Below are positions 23,042-31,710 of a stretch of 64,000 nt of DNA, in pieces. The translations under genes were made by a program, and so were the position numbers. The stretch's first letter is position 1. Each line of letters opens with the position of its first letter. The notes beneath the pieces are model-generated. The model did not search any database. It was not told the origin of the DNA and saw only the letters and a program-made list of their open reading frames with translations. Origin of the DNA: Bdellovibrionaceae bacterium UBA1609 (GTDB lineage: Bacteria; Bdellovibrionota; Bdellovibrionia; Bdellovibrionales; UBA1609); NCBI GenBank assembly GCA_002321895.1, contig DCMZ01000002.1, positions 1 to 64,000 on the forward strand, read 5' to 3'.

Positions 23042-26041
23042 CTAATCCGAACTCAACTTTAGTTTTCTAACCACATGATTGGCACGATCGCCGATAAATA
23101 GGTCACCATTTTCATCGAAAAGTACGTCGCCAGGATAGTAGTGTGTGGCAGATGTTCCAGTTATGCCCTCTTGCTCAAGGCCATAGGGAGAGCCCGCTCG
23201 GCGAGTGGCTTCAAGGTTACCTGAAACTGTCGAAATTCTTCCATCGGAGAGATCTATACACCGTACGTTGTGATCCCAGGTGTTTGCAAAGCAAATATAA
23301 TCTTCATTTACATCCACACCAAGGGGACGGTAGCAGCGCGCACTGGTGGCAAAAATGCCTTCAGAAGGGGAGCCAGAGGTCCCACTATTACAAGCTATGG
23401 TTGAGACTGAATTGGCGTTTACAGTGAGGTTTCCAACCATTACCGGAGATCCTGTTCTATTCCAGTAGCGGACTTTAGAATTCCATGAATCTGTTATAAT
23501 TAAATTCCCGATACTGTCCACAGCTAAACCATGAGGGCGATTAAACTGCACGCTGCCCTCGGCGACATTATTATTGCCAGAGTTGCCAGATGATCCACAG
23601 GTTCCTAAAACAGAAGTGACATTTCCAGTGTTGTCCAACTGTTTGATGCAGTGGTTTTGTTGGTCGGCGATAAAGATAACATCATTGCCGCTGTCGTTGT
23701 AAACAGCCACATCGGTAGGGTAATTGAATTCATGGGAAAGAGCCGGTCCATCTGGGCCATCTCCCGGTCCATTTGTCGCTCCAAGTGGATCACCTGCCAC
23801 ATTGGAAATTCGATCACTCAGTATAAAAGTACCGAAATATGTTTTATTAGAAATGGTGCGGTTCCAAATGCGAAAGCTATGCCCTCGGGTATTTAGTTGA
23901 ATGAGACTACCGTCGGATAAAAGAGCGGCGCCGTTCATATAATTGTCACCACTATACTGAACGCGAGTGAAAGCGTTGGAGGGGACATCATTTTCAATTT
24001 CCGGGTTCCCATTCCCGCGACCCACAGCCGTTGAGATTTCTCCATAAGGCGTCATTTGTCTCACGCGGTAGTTGTTTTGATCCACAAAAAACAGGGTTCT
24101 AGATGAACTTTCATAGGCCAAGCCACCCAATTGATTAAAAAGATGATCGATAGAAGGTTTATCAACATCTCCTAAAAAGCCATAGCGGCTCGTACCGGAT
24201 CCTAAAATGTCATACATTTTAGCATCGCCAACATCAATGGAGCGAATACGGCGGTTATTGTAGTCGGCGATATAAAGCACGTCAGAATCGCTGACATCAG
24301 GAAAAATATTGTAGGGCTCGTTGAGCTGGGCAATATCGAGATCTACATTGGTGCCATTGTATCCGGAGCTCGTACCCGCTGCATTGAGGTAGCCAGCTTC
24401 ATTATTGGCAATAGTACGGGCGCCGATAGTAATGTCCGCTCCCGTATTATTGGCCAATGCAATTTTATCTCTGTCTCTAAAGGTGTAATAGATCCGATTG
24501 TTGATGTGATAGACCCCTTCTGGGTCACCAGTGTTTAGGGTTGTGGGTTTGCCGTTGGTTTGGTAACCCGTCGAACCCGTCCCAATAATGGTTCTTACAT
24601 TTCCAGCTCCTACAGAAACATCACCCCAAAAAGTAACTGTTGCACCGGTTGTATTCACATATCGAATCCGGTTATTGTCACTATGGGTTACGTAAATACC
24701 TGTAGCATCCACATGTAAACCCATGGGTCTTCGAGCGCCCGAGGTGAGTGCATCGGCATTTTCACCGGAAACATCATCTCCACCATCACCATAAACCGTG
24801 GTCGCTAAGTCAGTGGCAAGATCCCATTTTTTCACTCGGTTCTCTGAGCGGCAAGCTACATATAGGCTTCCACTATAGATGCGGATCGTGACTGGATTGT
24901 CACAATCGTGATTATAGGCGGTGTTGCCGTCAACATGTGAGGAGCCGAAACCCATACCGATAAACATATTGCCATTGGAATCGACATATTTGATGCGATG
25001 ACCATTATATTCACTTATATATAGGACACCTGTGGCATCGTTGTAAGCCACACTTCGGGGATTGTAGATGGCCGTTTCAAGGGCAGGGCCGTCCGAACCA
25101 GAGTTGGCTTCTCCAGTTCCAGCAACCACTTTAATAGTGTTGGCGGCAATGGTCTGTCCCACTCGGTTGACAGCACCGGCCGTTTTGTTCCAATACCAAA
25201 CTAAGTGATTTTCGTAATCAGCAATAAACATGTTGCCTAAAGCATCTTGAGTCATATCAATGGGTCGGATTCGCAAATCATACTCGGAGTCTAAGGGGTT
25301 TGTGTTGTCCCCCACGCTAGGGCTTCCGGCAATGGTGCAAATTTCACCCTGTTCCAACTCATTACAGGCCATGGGGAAGTGGTTCACTTCAGCGACCCAA
25401 GTCTCTTGAGTCGTGGCCGTTCCGTCGGAGACATTCACTTGAATATTTATCTGTCCCACAAGTGCATCGGCACCCGTTAGAGTGGCGGTGCTACCAGATC
25501 CTGTTAGATAAGCACTACTAGCTCCATTGATGAGCCATTCATAAGTTAAACTATCACTATTTGGATCCGTTGCAGTCACGGCTATCGAGATACTGGATCC
25601 CACAGAGACTTTTGGAGTGCCGGTTGTAACCTTTGTTACAACGGGAGGTCCGTTGACTCGAACATCCCAAGTGTGCTCGTCAGTAGAGACTCCATCATAA
25701 GCTGAAACTGTGAGTGTATGGTCACCAATATTAGTTAAGTCTCCCGTGATTGAATAGTTGGTACTACTTCCTTGTTGCACGCTGGTTCCATCAATCTCCC
25801 AAGTTAAAACTATTCCTCGTCCCAGAGGAGCTTCCGCGGTCACAAAAAACTGCTGAGTTTGGGATTGTTCGATAGTCACCGAACCGGCATCTGGAACCAC
25901 TTGAGTGATCGTAGTCTGCTCAATTTCGGAAACATCCGAACTATTGAGTGGATTAAAGTCATCACTCCCAGAGCCACAGCCTAGGAAGAACACAAATGAA
26001 ACTGAAATTGTCCAAAAATTCTTATTCATAAAAACAACCAA
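23042..26041 (-). CDS. NHL-repeat (six-bladed beta-propeller) lipoprotein with N-terminal Ig-like domains
   Basis: 999 aa. Lipobox FFLGCGSGS. Many NHL-type blades, e.g. MFIADYENHLVWYW, LYISEYNGHRIKYVD, LYIADYNNRRIRSID, IFIADQQNHCIKQLD, LFIGDRANHVVRKL. Confidence 0.8.
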   Translation of the reverse strand: MVVFMNKNFWTISVSFVFFLGCGSGSDDFNPLNSSDVSEIEQTTITQVVPDAGSVTIEQSQTQQFFVTAEAPLGRGIVLTWEIDGTSVQQGSSTNYSITGDLTNIGDHTLTVSAYDGVSTDEHTWDVRVNGPPVVTKVTTGTPKVSVGSSISIAVTATDPNSDSLTYEWLINGASSAYLTGSGSTATLTGADALVGQINIQVNVSDGTATTQETWVAEVNHFPMACNELEQGEICTIAGSPSVGDNTNPLDSEYDLRIRPIDMTQDALGNMFIADYENHLVWYWNKTAGAVNRVGQTIAANTIKVVAGTGEANSGSDGPALETAIYNPRSVAYNDATGVLYISEYNGHRIKYVDSNGNMFIGMGFGSSHVDGNTAYNHDCDNPVTIRIYSGSLYVACRSENRVKKWDLATDLATTVYGDGGDDVSGENADALTSGARRPMGLHVDATGIYVTHSDNNRIRYVNTTGATVTFWGDVSVGAGNVRTIIGTGSTGYQTNGKPTTLNTGDPEGVYHINNRIYYTFRDRDKIALANNTGADITIGARTIANNEAGYLNAAGTSSGYNGTNVDLDIAQLNEPYNIFPDVSDSDVLYIADYNNRRIRSIDVGDAKMYDILGSGTSRYGFLGDVDKPSIDHLFNQLGGLAYESSSRTLFFVDQNNYRVRQMTPYGEISTAVGRGNGNPEIENDVPSNAFTRVQYSGDNYMNGAALLSDGSLIQLNTRGHSFRIWNRTISNKTYFGTFILSDRISNVAGDPLGATNGPGDGPDGPALSHEFNYPTDVAVYNDSGNDVIFIADQQNHCIKQLDNTGNVTSVLGTCGSSGNSGNNNVAEGSVQFNRPHGLAVDSIGNLIITDSWNSKVRYWNRTGSPVMVGNLTVNANSVSTIACNSGTSGSPSEGIFATSARCYRPLGVDVNEDYICFANTWDHNVRCIDLSDGRISTVSGNLEATRRAGSPYGLEQEGITGTSATHYYPGDVLFDENGDLFIGDRANHVVRKLKLSSD

Positions 26042-26341: not shown

Positions 26342-26953
26342 ATGTCATTATGCAAAATAAAAATTACCCTATCGATTCTGTCATTAGTTGTTTTGGGCTG
26401 TGCCTCATCGGGTGTTGAAGTGCAAACCACTCCAGAGCCTGGAGATGTTTATATGTACAGTTCCAATGGAGAAAAGAAGAATCTTGGACCGGCTCCGGTT
26501 ACCATTCCAGTGAAAGACTTAAAAGCTATTGATGGAGATTTAATACATTTAGGTGTCGAAAAAGAGGGTTTCGTTAAAGAACAGCTCTACATTAACAAAG
26601 CCAATTTCGGCGTGAATGCGAGCATTACTGTAAAGATGACTCCGTTGGCTAATTGGAACAAGGTTTATCAGGATGACCAGGCCAATAAATACTTGGCTGA
26701 AGTGGCTCGACTGGCAGCAGAAATTCAAAGTGCAACGGTGAAAAGAGAACTTGGTCGTGCGGAACAGTTAGCAAAGACCATGGTGGATCAATTTCCAAAA
26801 CTTGAAGTGGCTTGGAACTTATTGGGGAATATCTATTATTTGCAGAAGCGCGCGAGTGATGCACTCAATGCTTATAACAAAGCTGTTGCCCTGAATCCAT
26901 CTAGTGTGGAAGCAAAAAATATGATTAACAAACTTCGTGGAATTAATTTTTAA
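26342..26953 (+). CDS. TPR-containing lipoprotein, first gene of the motAB cluster
   Basis: Lipobox VVLGCASS. C-terminal TPR-like helices (AWNLLGNIYYLQKRASDALNAYNKAVALNPSSVEA). 13-nt gap to motA. Confidence 0.55.
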   Translation: MSLCKIKITLSILSLVVLGCASSGVEVQTTPEPGDVYMYSSNGEKKNLGPAPVTIPVKDLKAIDGDLIHLGVEKEGFVKEQLYINKANFGVNASITVKMTPLANWNKVYQDDQANKYLAEVARLAAEIQSATVKRELGRAEQLAKTMVDQFPKLEVAWNLLGNIYYLQKRASDALNAYNKAVALNPSSVEAKNMINKLRGINF

Positions 26954-26966
26954 AGGGGTCTAAAAA

Positions 26967-27776
26967 ATGTCACATTTATTTGGTCTCATAATTGCGGGAA
27001 TGCTTTTACGGTCCGCCATGTGGTTATTGGACATGGATTCCAGTTACTATGTGGAAGAAGTCGCATTGATTATTGTTTTTGGTGGAACAATAAGTGCTGC
27101 GATCATTACCTATTCCGTACCGGAACTGGTGAAAATGATTCGAGCTCTTTTCCGAATTGGTAAAAAAATGCCGGAAAGTAGAACGGCAACGGTTCATCAA
27201 ATAATAGATTTGGCGAAAAGGGCCAAGGAGTCTCCTCAAGCCCTATATGATGCAATGGATGATTCCAACTATAATCCTTATTTTAGAGATGGTTTAGAAC
27301 TCATTGTTTCGGGGTTCAGCCGAGGCGATTTAGAGACCGTAATGTCAGAAAGACTTTTTCGGGATCGGGAGCGTGATGAATCCTATGGATTGTTGTTAAG
27401 AACAATATCAAAGTATCCTCCCGCTTTTGGTTTGGTGGGTACAGTGCTCGGTCTGGTTTCGGTGATGAGAGCGGTTTCAACCGGAGCTGATGCCGCAGAG
27501 ATTGGTCTACAGATGGCCCTCGCTCTTGTGGCCACGTTCTATGGGTTGATTCTTACGAATTTCGTTTTGGTTCCAATGGCAGAGAATTTGATAAATAAGG
27601 CGGCTAAAAATATGACTCATAGGGAGTTAATGTTGGAAGGCCTACTGCTAATTAATGACAAACGATCTCCTGTCTATGTGCAAGAAGTGATGAACTCCTA
27701 CTTGTCACCGACTCAGAGAAAAGATCATGTGGGTATACGGGGAGGTGCTGCTGGAAATAGAGCTTCGGCAGCATAG
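26967..27776 (+). CDS. motA: MotA/TolQ/ExbB-family proton channel (flagellar stator MotA-like)
   Basis: 269 aa, 4 TM. YPPAFGLVGTVLGLVSVM and ALALVATFYGLILTNFV are MotA plug/TM3-4 signatures. Confidence 0.85.
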   Translation: MSHLFGLIIAGMLLRSAMWLLDMDSSYYVEEVALIIVFGGTISAAIITYSVPELVKMIRALFRIGKKMPESRTATVHQIIDLAKRAKESPQALYDAMDDSNYNPYFRDGLELIVSGFSRGDLETVMSERLFRDRERDESYGLLLRTISKYPPAFGLVGTVLGLVSVMRAVSTGADAAEIGLQMALALVATFYGLILTNFVLVPMAENLINKAAKNMTHRELMLEGLLLINDKRSPVYVQEVMNSYLSPTQRKDHVGIRGGAAGNRASAA

Positions 27777-27788
27777 AGGTTTATAGAG

Positions 27789-28724
27789 ATGCAAGAAAAT
27801 ACGAGTTCAAAATTTAGAAACTCTAAAAAGGATCGACTCCATGTGGGGCCGGTTGAAGGGGATCATAACAGTAACTGGGCGATCAGTTATGGGGATATGA
27901 TCACTTTGCTTTTAGCTTTCTTTGTTTTGTTCTTTAGCATCGATAAATCCAATAAAGATCTTCAGATTCTTGAGCGCAAAATTGATGAGGAATATAAAGA
28001 AGAAAAAAATGTACCCAAAGTAGCTGATGCTCAATGGGGCGCAGTTAAAAGCAATATAAAAGCAGACGGAAGAAAATCCAGTACGGGTCATATTGACCAA
28101 TCCCCAAGCCAAGAGGGACTCACTTCAAAATCTCTCAAAGTGACAGATGGGCGTTCACCTTCGTCGGCCATTCATGAAATAGTTGAGGACTTACCCGAAG
28201 TTTCTACTGAAATTCAGGGAAATAAAATGATCATTCAGTTTCCTGAAGTTTCTTTCTTCGACTCAGCTCAATTCACATTGACTAGCGAAGGCGATAGAGC
28301 TCTACAGAGATTCGCAAAAATCTTTAAAACAGTTAGAGGCCGGTTAAGATTAGTCGTCCGCGGGTATACGGACAATAGGCCCGTAAAATCGGGGAAAGTA
28401 TATAAAGATAACTTGGAATTATCCGCACTACGAGGAATTGCGGCCTTAAGATCCCTGAATTCAAGTGGAGTGCCGTATCATCTCATGCGAATCGGTGGTT
28501 ATGGAGAGTCAGACAAGAGTCAAGACGTGTCCGACAGGGAATTACAAAAGTATGATCGGAAAGTGGTGCTTGTAGTAGAGCCATTGGATGCCACAGAAAG
28601 AGGGTTCGAAGAAGAAACAGCTTCAAGAATTCCTTCGAGTCAATCTGAGGGTAAAGATAATAGCGATATTGAAGACATAGGAAATAAGGAAACGGAAAGT
28701 AAGGTCAAGGAGAATCAAAAATGA
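27789..28724 (+). CDS. motB: MotB-like stator protein with a C-terminal OmpA-family peptidoglycan-binding domain
   Basis: WAISYGDMITLLLAFFVLFFSI (MotB TM/plug) plus VRGYTDNRPV...NLELSALRGIAAL (OmpA-like). Confidence 0.85.
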   Translation: MQENTSSKFRNSKKDRLHVGPVEGDHNSNWAISYGDMITLLLAFFVLFFSIDKSNKDLQILERKIDEEYKEEKNVPKVADAQWGAVKSNIKADGRKSSTGHIDQSPSQEGLTSKSLKVTDGRSPSSAIHEIVEDLPEVSTEIQGNKMIIQFPEVSFFDSAQFTLTSEGDRALQRFAKIFKTVRGRLRLVVRGYTDNRPVKSGKVYKDNLELSALRGIAALRSLNSSGVPYHLMRIGGYGESDKSQDVSDRELQKYDRKVVLVVEPLDATERGFEEETASRIPSSQSEGKDNSDIEDIGNKETESKVKENQK

Positions 28725-30529
28725 AAAATACAGTGAAGATACACGGACTCTTCATTGCTATTCTTTTGGCAATTTCGACAATCGTTGTAATGCCAACAGC
28801 GGAAGCATCAAGAGTTCCAGAGATCGAACAGTTTTACCTGTCGAAAACCAGAGAGTTTTTGCAGCTCAGGTTTCCCAACGAACCTTTCTCTGTTTCAGTA
28901 ATAGTGGATACAGGCCGTGCTGAACCCACTCGAAAAGATTTTAATCGTCAATCCAACTCGAATAGTGTGACCAATTTACCTTATTTAGATATTGAAGAGG
29001 AAGAACTGGAAATATGGGATAGAACGGATATTCCATTGAACAACTTGATTGCTCAATTGCGTCGAGTTGAATTGCAAATTCAAATTGATTCATCAATGTC
29101 GGACGAAGATATCGTTGCATTACAAGACTCATTAGCTACTCATTTAAAGCTTGATCCAGGATCTGATGCTGTAAAAATTTATAAAATGGATTGGACTAAG
29201 CTTGAAAGATATAGAACTGTTGGCTGGGTGACGGGACTTCTTGCCTTTGCCATGGTTCTTGTTTTTGGTGTGTTCTATTTACTTGCAAAGCTCAGTGTTA
29301 GAAGTCTCGTGAAAGGTTTAGGTACACCTATTCGCGAGTTGGGCCAAAGTACGAAGAAGTTTGCTGATGATGCCTTATCTATTGCGACGGAAATGTCCAC
29401 TCCAGCAACTGCATCCGTACAAAAAATAAATGGTGCTAGTGTTGCTGGCAATGACGACGGAGATGAGCTGACTCATGGATCTAATTTACTGGAGATTCGT
29501 GAGAGCGCTTTAGAGCTTATCGATAGGAATAAGGAGTTCTTTGCTAATCCTGATGCCAATTTTATGGACTTTTTGAATAAGAGGGGTCAGAGAGATCCTG
29601 AAACAGTAGGATCAATTCTCGCTGAGCTACATAAAGATAGTCTAAAGCATCTCTTTGAAAACGGAAGTGGCGATTGGTGGTTTGTTGCCATTTCTCATCC
29701 GGGTCCGTTGTCTCCAAAATCCATATCAGTTCTAAGTGAAATTGATAAAATGCGATTAAGGATGACCTTTAATGAATCCAGCCGGGTGGCTCAAGTTCAA
29801 CAAGAATTCAAAGAAGAAGGTTTAATATTTTCTCGAATTCCTGTGACGAACTTAGCAGATATTTTTGGAGATCTATCTATTGAAAAGGCACTAGGAATTT
29901 TTGAGGTGATGCCAAGAACAAAAGCATTAGCCGTGGCAAAAGAAATGTATCCTGGGCAGTGGGCGGCCTTTCTTTTAGATCAAAAAGATAATCACGATCC
30001 TATTGATCGGGCTCTTTTAAGTCAGTTTATGGTGGAAGCTCAGAAGCGATTTCCGAAGCGAAAAGACGCAGCCATTCAGAAGTTTTTTGAAGAGATGGAT
30101 CTGTCTCTGTATTTAGATACGGCTAATACTAGGGATGAAAGAGATTTCTATGTGGCTCTTCCAAAAGATTCTAATATTCTTAATACAAGAACTCCCTTCT
30201 TTAGCGTGTTCGATGCCTCTAAAGGCATCTTGAAAACACTAGGAACGGCATTGTCTCCTCAAGACTGGGCTCTTGTTCTGACTCATGCGGAACATCATGA
30301 ACGGGATAAGTTTCTTAATGCCATACCGGAAAGACTTTCTTTTCGGATTCATGAAGAGGGTCGTGGCATTAAGATCACTCCACAGGATGAACCCCATATA
30401 CGTTATTTAAAAAGATCATTAGTAGCAGCTTATATAGAAGAAACCAACAAGTCCAATGCGGATGTGCAGGATCTAATAAATGAAATTGATGCAACTCAGA
30501 GTATTGCCAATGAGGAGCCTGCGGCTTAG
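28721..30529 (+). CDS. Uncharacterised 602-aa two-TM membrane protein (periplasmic loop and a large cytoplasmic helical domain) translationally coupled to motB
   Basis: ATGA overlap with motB. TM1 at residues 9-25 and TM2 WVTGLLAFAMVLVFGVFYLLA. Cytoplasmic region has helical repeats (LADIFGDLSIEKALGIFEVMPRTKALAVAKEM) faintly reminiscent of MgtE-N/FliG-type repeats. Confidence 0.6.
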   Translation: MKNTVKIHGLFIAILLAISTIVVMPTAEASRVPEIEQFYLSKTREFLQLRFPNEPFSVSVIVDTGRAEPTRKDFNRQSNSNSVTNLPYLDIEEEELEIWDRTDIPLNNLIAQLRRVELQIQIDSSMSDEDIVALQDSLATHLKLDPGSDAVKIYKMDWTKLERYRTVGWVTGLLAFAMVLVFGVFYLLAKLSVRSLVKGLGTPIRELGQSTKKFADDALSIATEMSTPATASVQKINGASVAGNDDGDELTHGSNLLEIRESALELIDRNKEFFANPDANFMDFLNKRGQRDPETVGSILAELHKDSLKHLFENGSGDWWFVAISHPGPLSPKSISVLSEIDKMRLRMTFNESSRVAQVQQEFKEEGLIFSRIPVTNLADIFGDLSIEKALGIFEVMPRTKALAVAKEMYPGQWAAFLLDQKDNHDPIDRALLSQFMVEAQKRFPKRKDAAIQKFFEEMDLSLYLDTANTRDERDFYVALPKDSNILNTRTPFFSVFDASKGILKTLGTALSPQDWALVLTHAEHHERDKFLNAIPERLSFRIHEEGRGIKITPQDEPHIRYLKRSLVAAYIEETNKSNADVQDLINEIDATQSIANEEPAA

Positions 30530-31103
30530 CAGGGTACTTTTTGGTGCCATAACAGTTTTAATTTATTTTTGTAGCCTACCCGTGGCTGCAGAAACTAAGT
30601 ACCCCTATCAGGTGTTCCTACAGGGTGGTACATATAACTTTGAAGTGACTACGGAGACCAACGACTCATCAGATACATTGTCTGGTTTTGGGGCTTATTC
30701 CATTGGTGTTGGAGCCACTATTTTTCAAAAATTTCTAGTCGTTGCAGGATATAGTTTAATTCTGAGTGACGGTTTCACCGGTAGCACAGCTACAGGCTTA
30801 GATTTTGGGATGCGATATTATCATTGGACACGGCCATCCATGGAAGTTTCTGAAGTAGAGAATCTAGAGATGTCAGTTTACAACCTCTATAACCCATATG
30901 TGGGATTAGCGGTTCGCTCTCGGGATTTTCTATCTACCCTTACATCCACCTATCTTGGCTTGGGTTTTGTGGCAGGGTTAGATTACAGGTATAAAAAGGA
31001 CTACTATTTAAATGCCGAGTTCAGATATGAAGAGTTGGAGAGCCCGGCCTCAAAAACGCTAGTTCAAATGAATATTTTATTTGGAATTGGAGTGTATTTC
31101 TAA
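30510..31103 (+). CDS. Outer-membrane beta-barrel protein (OmpA/OmpW-like small barrel)
   Basis: Signal peptide (LFGAITVLIYFCSLPVAA); amphipathic beta-strands; C-terminal ILFGIGVYF aromatic beta-signal. Confidence 0.55.
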   Translation: MRSLRLSRVLFGAITVLIYFCSLPVAAETKYPYQVFLQGGTYNFEVTTETNDSSDTLSGFGAYSIGVGATIFQKFLVVAGYSLILSDGFTGSTATGLDFGMRYYHWTRPSMEVSEVENLEMSVYNLYNPYVGLAVRSRDFLSTLTSTYLGLGFVAGLDYRYKKDYYLNAEFRYEELESPASKTLVQMNILFGIGVYF

Positions 31104-31278
31104 TAGAGAATCGCCCGAAAGCCGCTCAGGTACAATGAAACAGGCGATGAGTGACAATTTTTGTGTAAGTGCTCGAAAACTCTTCAACATCGATTTTAGA
31201 ATTTCAGTATTACGGAAGAATCGTCTTATATTGGTTTTAAGGGATTGTTTTAGAAAATTAATTTTAGGGAGAAGAGAG

Positions 31279-31710
31279 ATGGGAACGGGACAAATGATAT
31301 TAGCCAAAAAATTAGGTTATGTTCTAATAATGGTCCTCGCTGTGAGTTTCGCAATGGAGAGCAGCGCTATCAGTGGAAAGTCCATTAGAAGCAAGATATC
31401 TAAACAAAGATCCGATTTTAGAGATTGTTATGATAAAAATTTAAAGCGATTTCCTAGAATGAATGGTGAGACAGAGTTGTCATGGACAATCAATGATAAG
31501 GGTGAAGCTAAGGGTATTAAAATTACCCGTAGAATGAATCGAAGTGTAGACCGTTGCTTGGCAAAAGTTCTTTCAGAAATTCATTTTCCAAAGGCGCCCG
31601 AGGGTCAAGAGATAACGGTCAGCTATCCGTTTGTGTTTGAACAGGCTCCATTTGATAATGATCGAAAACCGTCTTCTTATAAGAAACCTAGAAAAACGGT
31701 AAAGAAATAG
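31279..31710 (+). CDS. Small secreted protein consisting of an AgmX/PglI C-terminal-type domain
   Basis: Start at MGTGQM preceded by GGGAGAAGAGAG. DCYDKNLKRFPRMNGETELSWTINDKGEAKGIKITRRMNRSVDRCLAKVLSEIHFPKAPEGQEITVSYPFVF matches my recollection of the CY...G.v.v.f.I...G.v...C......FP.P.....v.YPF.F pattern of that domain. Confidence 0.5.
   Translation: MGTGQMILAKKLGYVLIMVLAVSFAMESSAISGKSIRSKISKQRSDFRDCYDKNLKRFPRMNGETELSWTINDKGEAKGIKITRRMNRSVDRCLAKVLSEIHFPKAPEGQEITVSYPFVFEQAPFDNDRKPSSYKKPRKTVKK

Follow-up and report, generated by a model that had tools for sequence, protein, structure and literature searches.

A candidate rotor-side partner of MotAB with FliF RBM3-like and FliG-like domains, encoded in a conserved envelope module of uncultured Bdellovibrio relatives

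FliG and the torque interface between MotA and FliG are, to our knowledge, regarded as exclusive to the flagellum. Among other systems of the envelope, Tol-Pal joins Q and R to the product of a third, inner-membrane gene, a TPR protein, a β-propeller and an anchor of OmpA type, and Glt includes TPR proteins, small outer-membrane barrels and TonB_C-like proteins. We know of no gliding system with a FliG-like or FliF-like component. Residues R281 and D288/D289 of FliG contact MotA, and the plug, OmpA domain, channel Asp and channel prolines are features of flagellar-type stators according to Puente-Lelievre et al. (PMC12505986); this latest stator phylogeny equates TGI-bearing stators with a plug and an OmpA domain with flagellar function. 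FliF-FliG fusions have been engineered in Salmonella and Vibrio (PMC11481574, PMC10941966), and such fusions form rings and work (PMC11481574). How the Bdellovibrionota glide is acknowledged to be unsolved (PMC13104615). A literature search, with most subscription journals outside its reach, found no FliG-like or FliF-like protein associated with a non-flagellar MotAB.

The window analysed here, a whole stretch of 64 kb, contains a gene directly downstream of motB whose product, here called X, combines a FliF RBM3-like periplasmic domain with a membrane helix and, in the cytoplasm, a region resembling the whole of FliG (28721–30529; all features lie on the forward strand unless stated otherwise). 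The open reading frame is genuine and encodes 602 aa. As the earlier note had observed, its start codon (28721–28723) overlaps the motB stop codon (TGA, 28722–28724) in the sequence ATGA (28721–28724), with a GGAG 8 nt upstream of the ATG, and overlap or abutment of the two genes recurs at nearly all other loci. For instance, the same 4-nt overlap is found at L001, L003, L005, L007, L013, L015, L016, L018, L020, L022 and on the P0162 contig, and the remaining loci have overlaps of 1–8 nt or a gap of 2 nt. The accompanying suggestion of stoichiometric co-expression with the stator does not follow, as translational coupling does not imply stoichiometry. A scan of the operon for promoters and terminators gave counts not above those of shuffled sequences. 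The family of X comprises about 222 cluster representatives, none of them named and all annotated publicly as "hypothetical protein"; its taxonomy, as far as known, covers Bdellovibrionales/Bdellovibrionia MAGs and one Oligoflexales MAG, the sole name that cluster look-ups returned for clades B and C.

The cytoplasmic part of X is about 410 aa long, which keeps the location proposed in the earlier note and slightly amends the proposed size of about 400 aa. It begins with a variable linker (aa 222–254, 29384–29482) that is predicted to be disordered (pLDDT below 50), is poorly conserved and is gapped in A1 and A3. Three domains follow: a FliG_N-like domain with approximate boundaries (about aa 255–353, 29483–29779), a FliG_M/MgtE-N-like domain (about aa 355–445, 29783–30055) and a FliG_C-like domain (about aa 449–597, 30065–30511). 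The segment for which a weak resemblance to FliG and the MgtE N-domain had been claimed beforehand, LADIFGDLSIEKALGIFEVMPRTKALAVAKEM (aa 378–409, 29852–29947), lies within the second of these. In Pfam, X of the window has a weak MgtE_N match (aa 365–418, E 0.0056), which encloses this segment and is under the gathering score, and a weak FliG_C match (aa 500–546) of 14.1 bits against a gathering cut-off of 23.3, and lacks FliG_M and FliG_N matches. Of 25 homologues, 14 share the MgtE_N match and 20 the FliG_C match (best 1.8e-6), so that these matches are not due to chance.

Structural comparisons extended the resemblance well beyond that segment. Two independent AF2 models were obtained, one from clade A (pLDDT 77, rising to about 88 for the cytoplasmic region) and one from clade B (pLDDT 80). 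A Foldseek search with such a model had been set in advance as the check on which the proposed similarity could fail; with the clade A model, the top 13 matches in the PDB were all FliG, aligned over about 320 columns, and FliG was again the top match for the clade B model, which shares only about 20% identity with clade A; for both models the FliG matches run full length. A profile built from 141 sequences also found PDB FliG_C chains by sequence alone (E 4.4e-5), whereas a search of the PDB with the single X sequence returned only noise. When the X family was compared by hhalign with E. coli FliG, or with a low-diversity enterobacterial FliG alignment built from near-identical sequences, the C-domain alone was aligned (E about 0.02), and no sequence-based fix of the N and M domain registers was obtained. 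The predicted structure has the N/M/C architecture of FliG: its folds are ARM-like, and a torque domain of six helices stands at the C-terminus. Judged by these comparisons, X is a remote FliG homologue that falls outside the family by Pfam's rule.

Some of the positions that matter for torque in FliG are conserved within the family. In the torque-helix equivalent (aa 536–549, 30326–30367), 140 of 141 members have K or R where FliG has R281, and 88 of 141 have E where it has D288, with an acidic residue missing in 38%; the positions of D289, K264 and R297 are not conserved. A hinge-like RxPF[FY] motif (aa 490–494, 30188–30202) occupies the place of the FliG MFXF hinge, with R490 in 138, P492 in 130 and F493 in 137 of the 141 sequences. 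A collinear alignment made by eye places FliG EHPQ at R372-I-P-V (family consensus W-R-L), so that this FliM-binding motif is not evident in X; in the same kind of by-eye register, the position of FliG R160 is K or R in 139 of 141. Behind a disordered polar tail, X ends in Ala-Ala (30521–30526), and the family terminates in -AA in 97 and in -VA in 21 of 141 members.

The four-helix ARM-like fold (MgtE_N, PF03448) that is common to FliG and X is also found in the MgtE N-domain and in E-ring proteins, and an MgtE_N-like domain is the identifying mark of the E-ring family (PMC13023049). X could thus be read as a MotE/FlbB/FlgY-type E-ring member whose MgtE_N-like head scaffolds stators in the periplasm, given that E-ring proteins, too, are linked to the membrane and associate with stators, that the MgtE_N match is present and that X adjoins motB. 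However, E-ring proteins are small, with a TM segment or signal peptide at the N-terminus and a coiled coil, and their heads are periplasmic and single-domain, whereas X is a protein of 602 aa with three cytoplasmic FliG-type domains, including the FliG_C torque domain, and FliF-like extras; these properties effectively refute the assignment, which we hold to be extremely improbable. An MgtE Mg2+ channel was likewise rejected: the MgtE N-domain precedes CBS and channel domains, and no CBS or MgtE transmembrane Pfam matches were present in X or the 25 homologues.

The membrane topology of X differs from the two-TM arrangement that had been proposed previously, which is now doubtful. Residues 1–29 (28721–28807) resemble a Sec signal peptide with a positive n-region, and a small-x-small pattern (PTAEA) precedes S30-R31, which is invariant in the clade of the window. 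The apolar run of this segment has a median length of 13 residues in 139 members, compared to 20 for the TM helix at aa 167–189; in X of the window it is about 17 residues. These sequence features make it probable that the first hydrophobic stretch is a signal peptide and is cleaved off, leaving one TM helix; alternatively, it may be an uncleaved N-terminal anchor in the window protein. The helix at aa 167–189 (29219–29287) is the hydropathy maximum of X and lies inside a long helix of the model (aa 158–223). Between the two segments, where a loop of about 150 aa had been suggested, the periplasmic placement stands, but the region is a folded domain of about 128–135 aa (28808–29191). Its elements run in the order α1 (32–50), β1 (56–63), an insertion (64–114), β (115–123), α (128–141) and β (150–156), which is the αββαβ fold of the FliF ring-building motif RBM3, split by a β-collar insertion. 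In the clade A and clade B models alike, Foldseek matched this domain to FliF RBM3 in the PDB. Only one RBM-sized domain is present, RBM1, RBM2 and the two TM helices of FliF are not, and neither X nor any of 25 members has a match to the YscJ_FliF Pfam family.

In effect, X amounts to a natural miniature FliF-FliG fusion, with an RBM3-type domain carrying an insertion at the β-collar position, one membrane helix and FliG N, M and C in the same order as in FliF plus FliG. The differences from the flagellar pair are nonetheless considerable. X is one natural gene product of about 580 aa, compared to about 560 aa for the MS-ring protein FliF and about 330 aa for FliG at the top of the C-ring; its β-collar is much shorter; a probable cleaved signal peptide stands in place of FliF TM1; and a covalent disordered linker replaces the handshake between FliF_C and FliG_N, whereas FliG is soluble and tethered non-covalently to the FliF C-terminus. 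The function of engineered fusions, together with the two folds and the position beside motAB, would be consistent with X being the rotor of a true flagellum that is reduced or has diverged strongly. This is very unlikely, however, because a single RBM without RBM1 and RBM2 offers nothing to house the export gate, because the partners of X are lipoproteins and an outer-membrane protein, and because neither about 20 X neighbourhoods nor the 64-kb window contain genes for an export gate, a rod, a hook, FliM or FliN. Similarly, no flagellar Pfam families besides MotA/MotB were listed for the neighbouring genes of X loci, and, apart from MotA/MotB, a scan of the larger ORFs of the window revealed no flagellar genes.

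The stator genes upstream of X encode a divergent paralogue of the flagellar-type A subunit (MotA, 26967–27776; PF01618, E 9e-21) and a MotB with a TM helix carrying the channel Asp, a plug, a long linker and an OmpA-like peptidoglycan-binding domain (27789–28724; MotB_plug E 1.5e-11, OmpA E 7.7e-10). Among solved structures, flagellar MotA/PomA chains match MotA from end to end (6ysf, 8.5e-33; 8ucs; 8bri), as compared to only 2e-7 for TolQ. The channel prolines of MotA (PPAFG and xxP) are kept in 15 of 15 sequences, and the MotB motif NWAISYGDM, including the channel Asp, in all 15 full-length module MotBs. The pair therefore has the attributes of flagellar-type (FIT) stators, namely a torque-generating cytoplasmic domain in A and a plug, linker, OmpA-like domain and channel Asp in B. 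Compared to MotAB/PomAB, the module stator lies outside any flagellar locus and under all NCBIfam flagellar equivalog cut-offs (MotA, 125.9 bits against 237; MotB, 89 against 283), and the MotA loop that holds R90/E98 in E. coli is variable, with no recognisable fixed positions for these residues. Charge covariation between MotA and X showed no clean pattern, the MotA loop being too variable. MotA ends in -AA, -SA, -AS or -VA in 15 of 16 cases, thus sharing the Ala-Ala type of terminus with X; MotB has no such end.

A MotAB-type motor also powers Zorya anti-phage defence, and PADLOC reported weak ZorB matches to MotB (best 4.5e-12), which arise through shared MotB/OmpA homology. Zorya comprises ZorA and ZorB with ZorC/D or ZorE, but PADLOC gave no ZorA, ZorC or ZorD and no defence system, and neither MotA nor X nor any of the remaining genes had a match. 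Additionally, the chromosomal context is of a housekeeping kind, is conserved across clades and bears no signs of mobile elements, and a defence function is thus scarcely credible.

Beyond its link to motB, X is part of a conserved envelope module of six genes. The expectation that the motB adjacency would be conserved in other genomes was borne out: motB lies immediately 5' of X in 18 of 18 distinct loci with upstream sequence, in all clades sampled, and in two more contexts known from gene tables only. The operon's first gene (26342–26953) encodes a lipoprotein (lipobox VVLGC) with a PEGA-like N-terminal motif, "sEPxGAxV", spotted by eye, for which no PEGA Pfam match was obtained, and a C-terminal TPR (TPR_1/TPR_2, aa 157–187). 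Its Cys is at position 18–36 in all 14 full-length homologues, and the gene is immediately 5' of motA in 16 of 16 loci with sequence. Immediately 3' of X, in 19 of 19 distinct loci, is a small outer-membrane β-barrel (30510–31103; Opacity E 6.6e-6, OMP_b-brl 2e-4) with a signal peptide and an aromatic C-terminal residue; its ORF opens at 30480, and Met11 at 30510, which overlaps the end of X, is the likely start. The order lipoprotein (PEGA-like/TPR), MotA, MotB, X and small OMP is found at 19 distinct loci, usually beside a giant NHL lipoprotein, and the full gene order is kept across clades with only about 20% identity in X. In the window, this NHL-repeat (β-propeller) lipoprotein of 999 aa (23042–26041, reverse strand; Pfam NHL E 4e-20, TEN_NHL; lipobox FFLGC) precedes the operon. 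A homologue of 1000–2700 aa adjoins the operon in 13 loci; it is co-directional with it at L011, L016, L018, L020 and L022, and is downstream and co-directional in the P0162 gene table. The giant lipoprotein is the sixth conserved component of the module and a candidate for its output or surface part.

These component types parallel those of Tol-Pal and Glt, which raises the alternative of a Tol-Pal- or Agl-Glt-like force transducer in which the work is periplasmic and falls to MotB, the OMP, the TPR lipoprotein and the propeller protein. In such a machine X itself would not turn, but would position or gate the stator, as a static membrane anchor or as an input domain in the cytoplasm. Like Agl-Glt of Myxococcus and GldLM/T9SS of Bacteroidota, the module pairs an ion-driven motor of 5:2 type with TPR proteins, small outer-membrane barrels and large surface proteins; the host phylum glides, and its gliding motor is unidentified (PMC13104615). 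Additionally, an accessory ORF 3' of the operon (31081–31710) has an AgmX/PglI C-terminal domain of the GltG-like, TonB_C type (NCBIfam NF033768, 68 bits against a cut-off of 40; GltG E 3e-16). However, this ORF is limited to the window and its closest relative, L006, is missing at every other locus, and thus lies outside the conserved core. The module motor is flagellar-type MotAB, rather than TolQR-like AglRQS or the non-homologous GldLM, its MotA matches flagellar MotA/PomA (1e-33) far better than it does TolQ (2e-7) or ExbB, and no core protein of Glt or Gld was detected. The large domain of X is cytoplasmic and FliG-like, unlike TolA, TonB and GltG. Such a transducer is therefore unlikely.

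Equally, X might regulate the stators of an ordinary flagellar motor, as a FliG mimic that parks, pre-activates, sequesters or delivers the MotAB paralogue. X would then be a decoy rotor, a clutch or an assembly platform and would not itself be driven. Bdellovibrio species are flagellated and have several stator sets, and high-torque flagellar motors use Sel1/TPR-type scaffolds. The co-encoded TPR envelope partner of the module is a likeness to such scaffolded MotAB/PomAB motors (Vibrio T-ring MotX/MotY; Campylobacter PflA/PflB). The basic torque-helix residue kept in X, its tight coupling to motB, the flagellar-type MotAB and the Ala-Ala terminus common to X and MotA, which would fit regulated turnover, are all compatible with this role, and the module could serve a flagellum if host genomes also carry one. 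Yet a decoy needs neither a FliF-like ring-building domain nor full FliG N and M domains, nor does it need the OMP, TPR and giant NHL lipoproteins that are constantly co-inherited across clades with about 20% identity, and no flagellar gene is near any locus. A regulatory role is accordingly improbable.

Taken together, we consider it reasonably probable that X serves as rotor-side partner to the MotAB encoded just upstream, in a trans-envelope machine that is not a flagellum. A non-flagellar use of rotor and stator parts is indicated because neither a type III export gate nor a rod, a hook or a C-ring is part of the module. As in established stator mechanics, MotB would fix the stator to the peptidoglycan, and the MotA ring would be turned by ions flowing through MotA5B2. 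We infer that X presents a rotor-like surface to MotA, whose cytoplasmic domain would contact and push the FliG_C-like domain via the conserved torque helix. FliF assembles into rings of about 34 subunits; X would probably oligomerise through its RBM and FliG-like ARM domains, and the resulting ring may be driven round or displaced in the membrane. More speculatively, this motion may be passed to, or scaffolded by, the PEGA-like/TPR lipoprotein, the 8-strand-type OMP and the giant NHL-propeller lipoprotein, with movement or exposure of surface adhesins (gliding, prey contact) or envelope remodelling as possible outputs. The periplasmic domain of X is small (about 135 aa), and thus there is no obvious route for motion across the periplasm. 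That the six genes form a self-contained, flagellum-independent rotary or force machine, in which a minimal FliF/FliG-like ring rotor and a dedicated MotAB power an NHL-propeller outer-membrane assembly, is put forward as a tentative proposal, somewhat short of an even chance.

The module may constitute a previously undescribed envelope motor, driven by ions, of uncultured relatives of Bdellovibrio, and is a concrete candidate for the envelope or surface motor of the Bdellovibrionota that has not been identified. An operon with such a stator, a minimal FliF/FliG-like protein and outer-membrane partners, and with no export apparatus, rod or switch, would mean that the rotor-stator core is separable, which bears on the evolutionary assembly of the flagellar motor, and would offer a far simpler system for studies of torque generation. 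If the proposal is true, this would be the first FliG-MotA torque interface used outside the flagellum, and a living rotor-stator core that runs without a type III secretion apparatus, either as an offshoot or as a relic of the flagellar motor.

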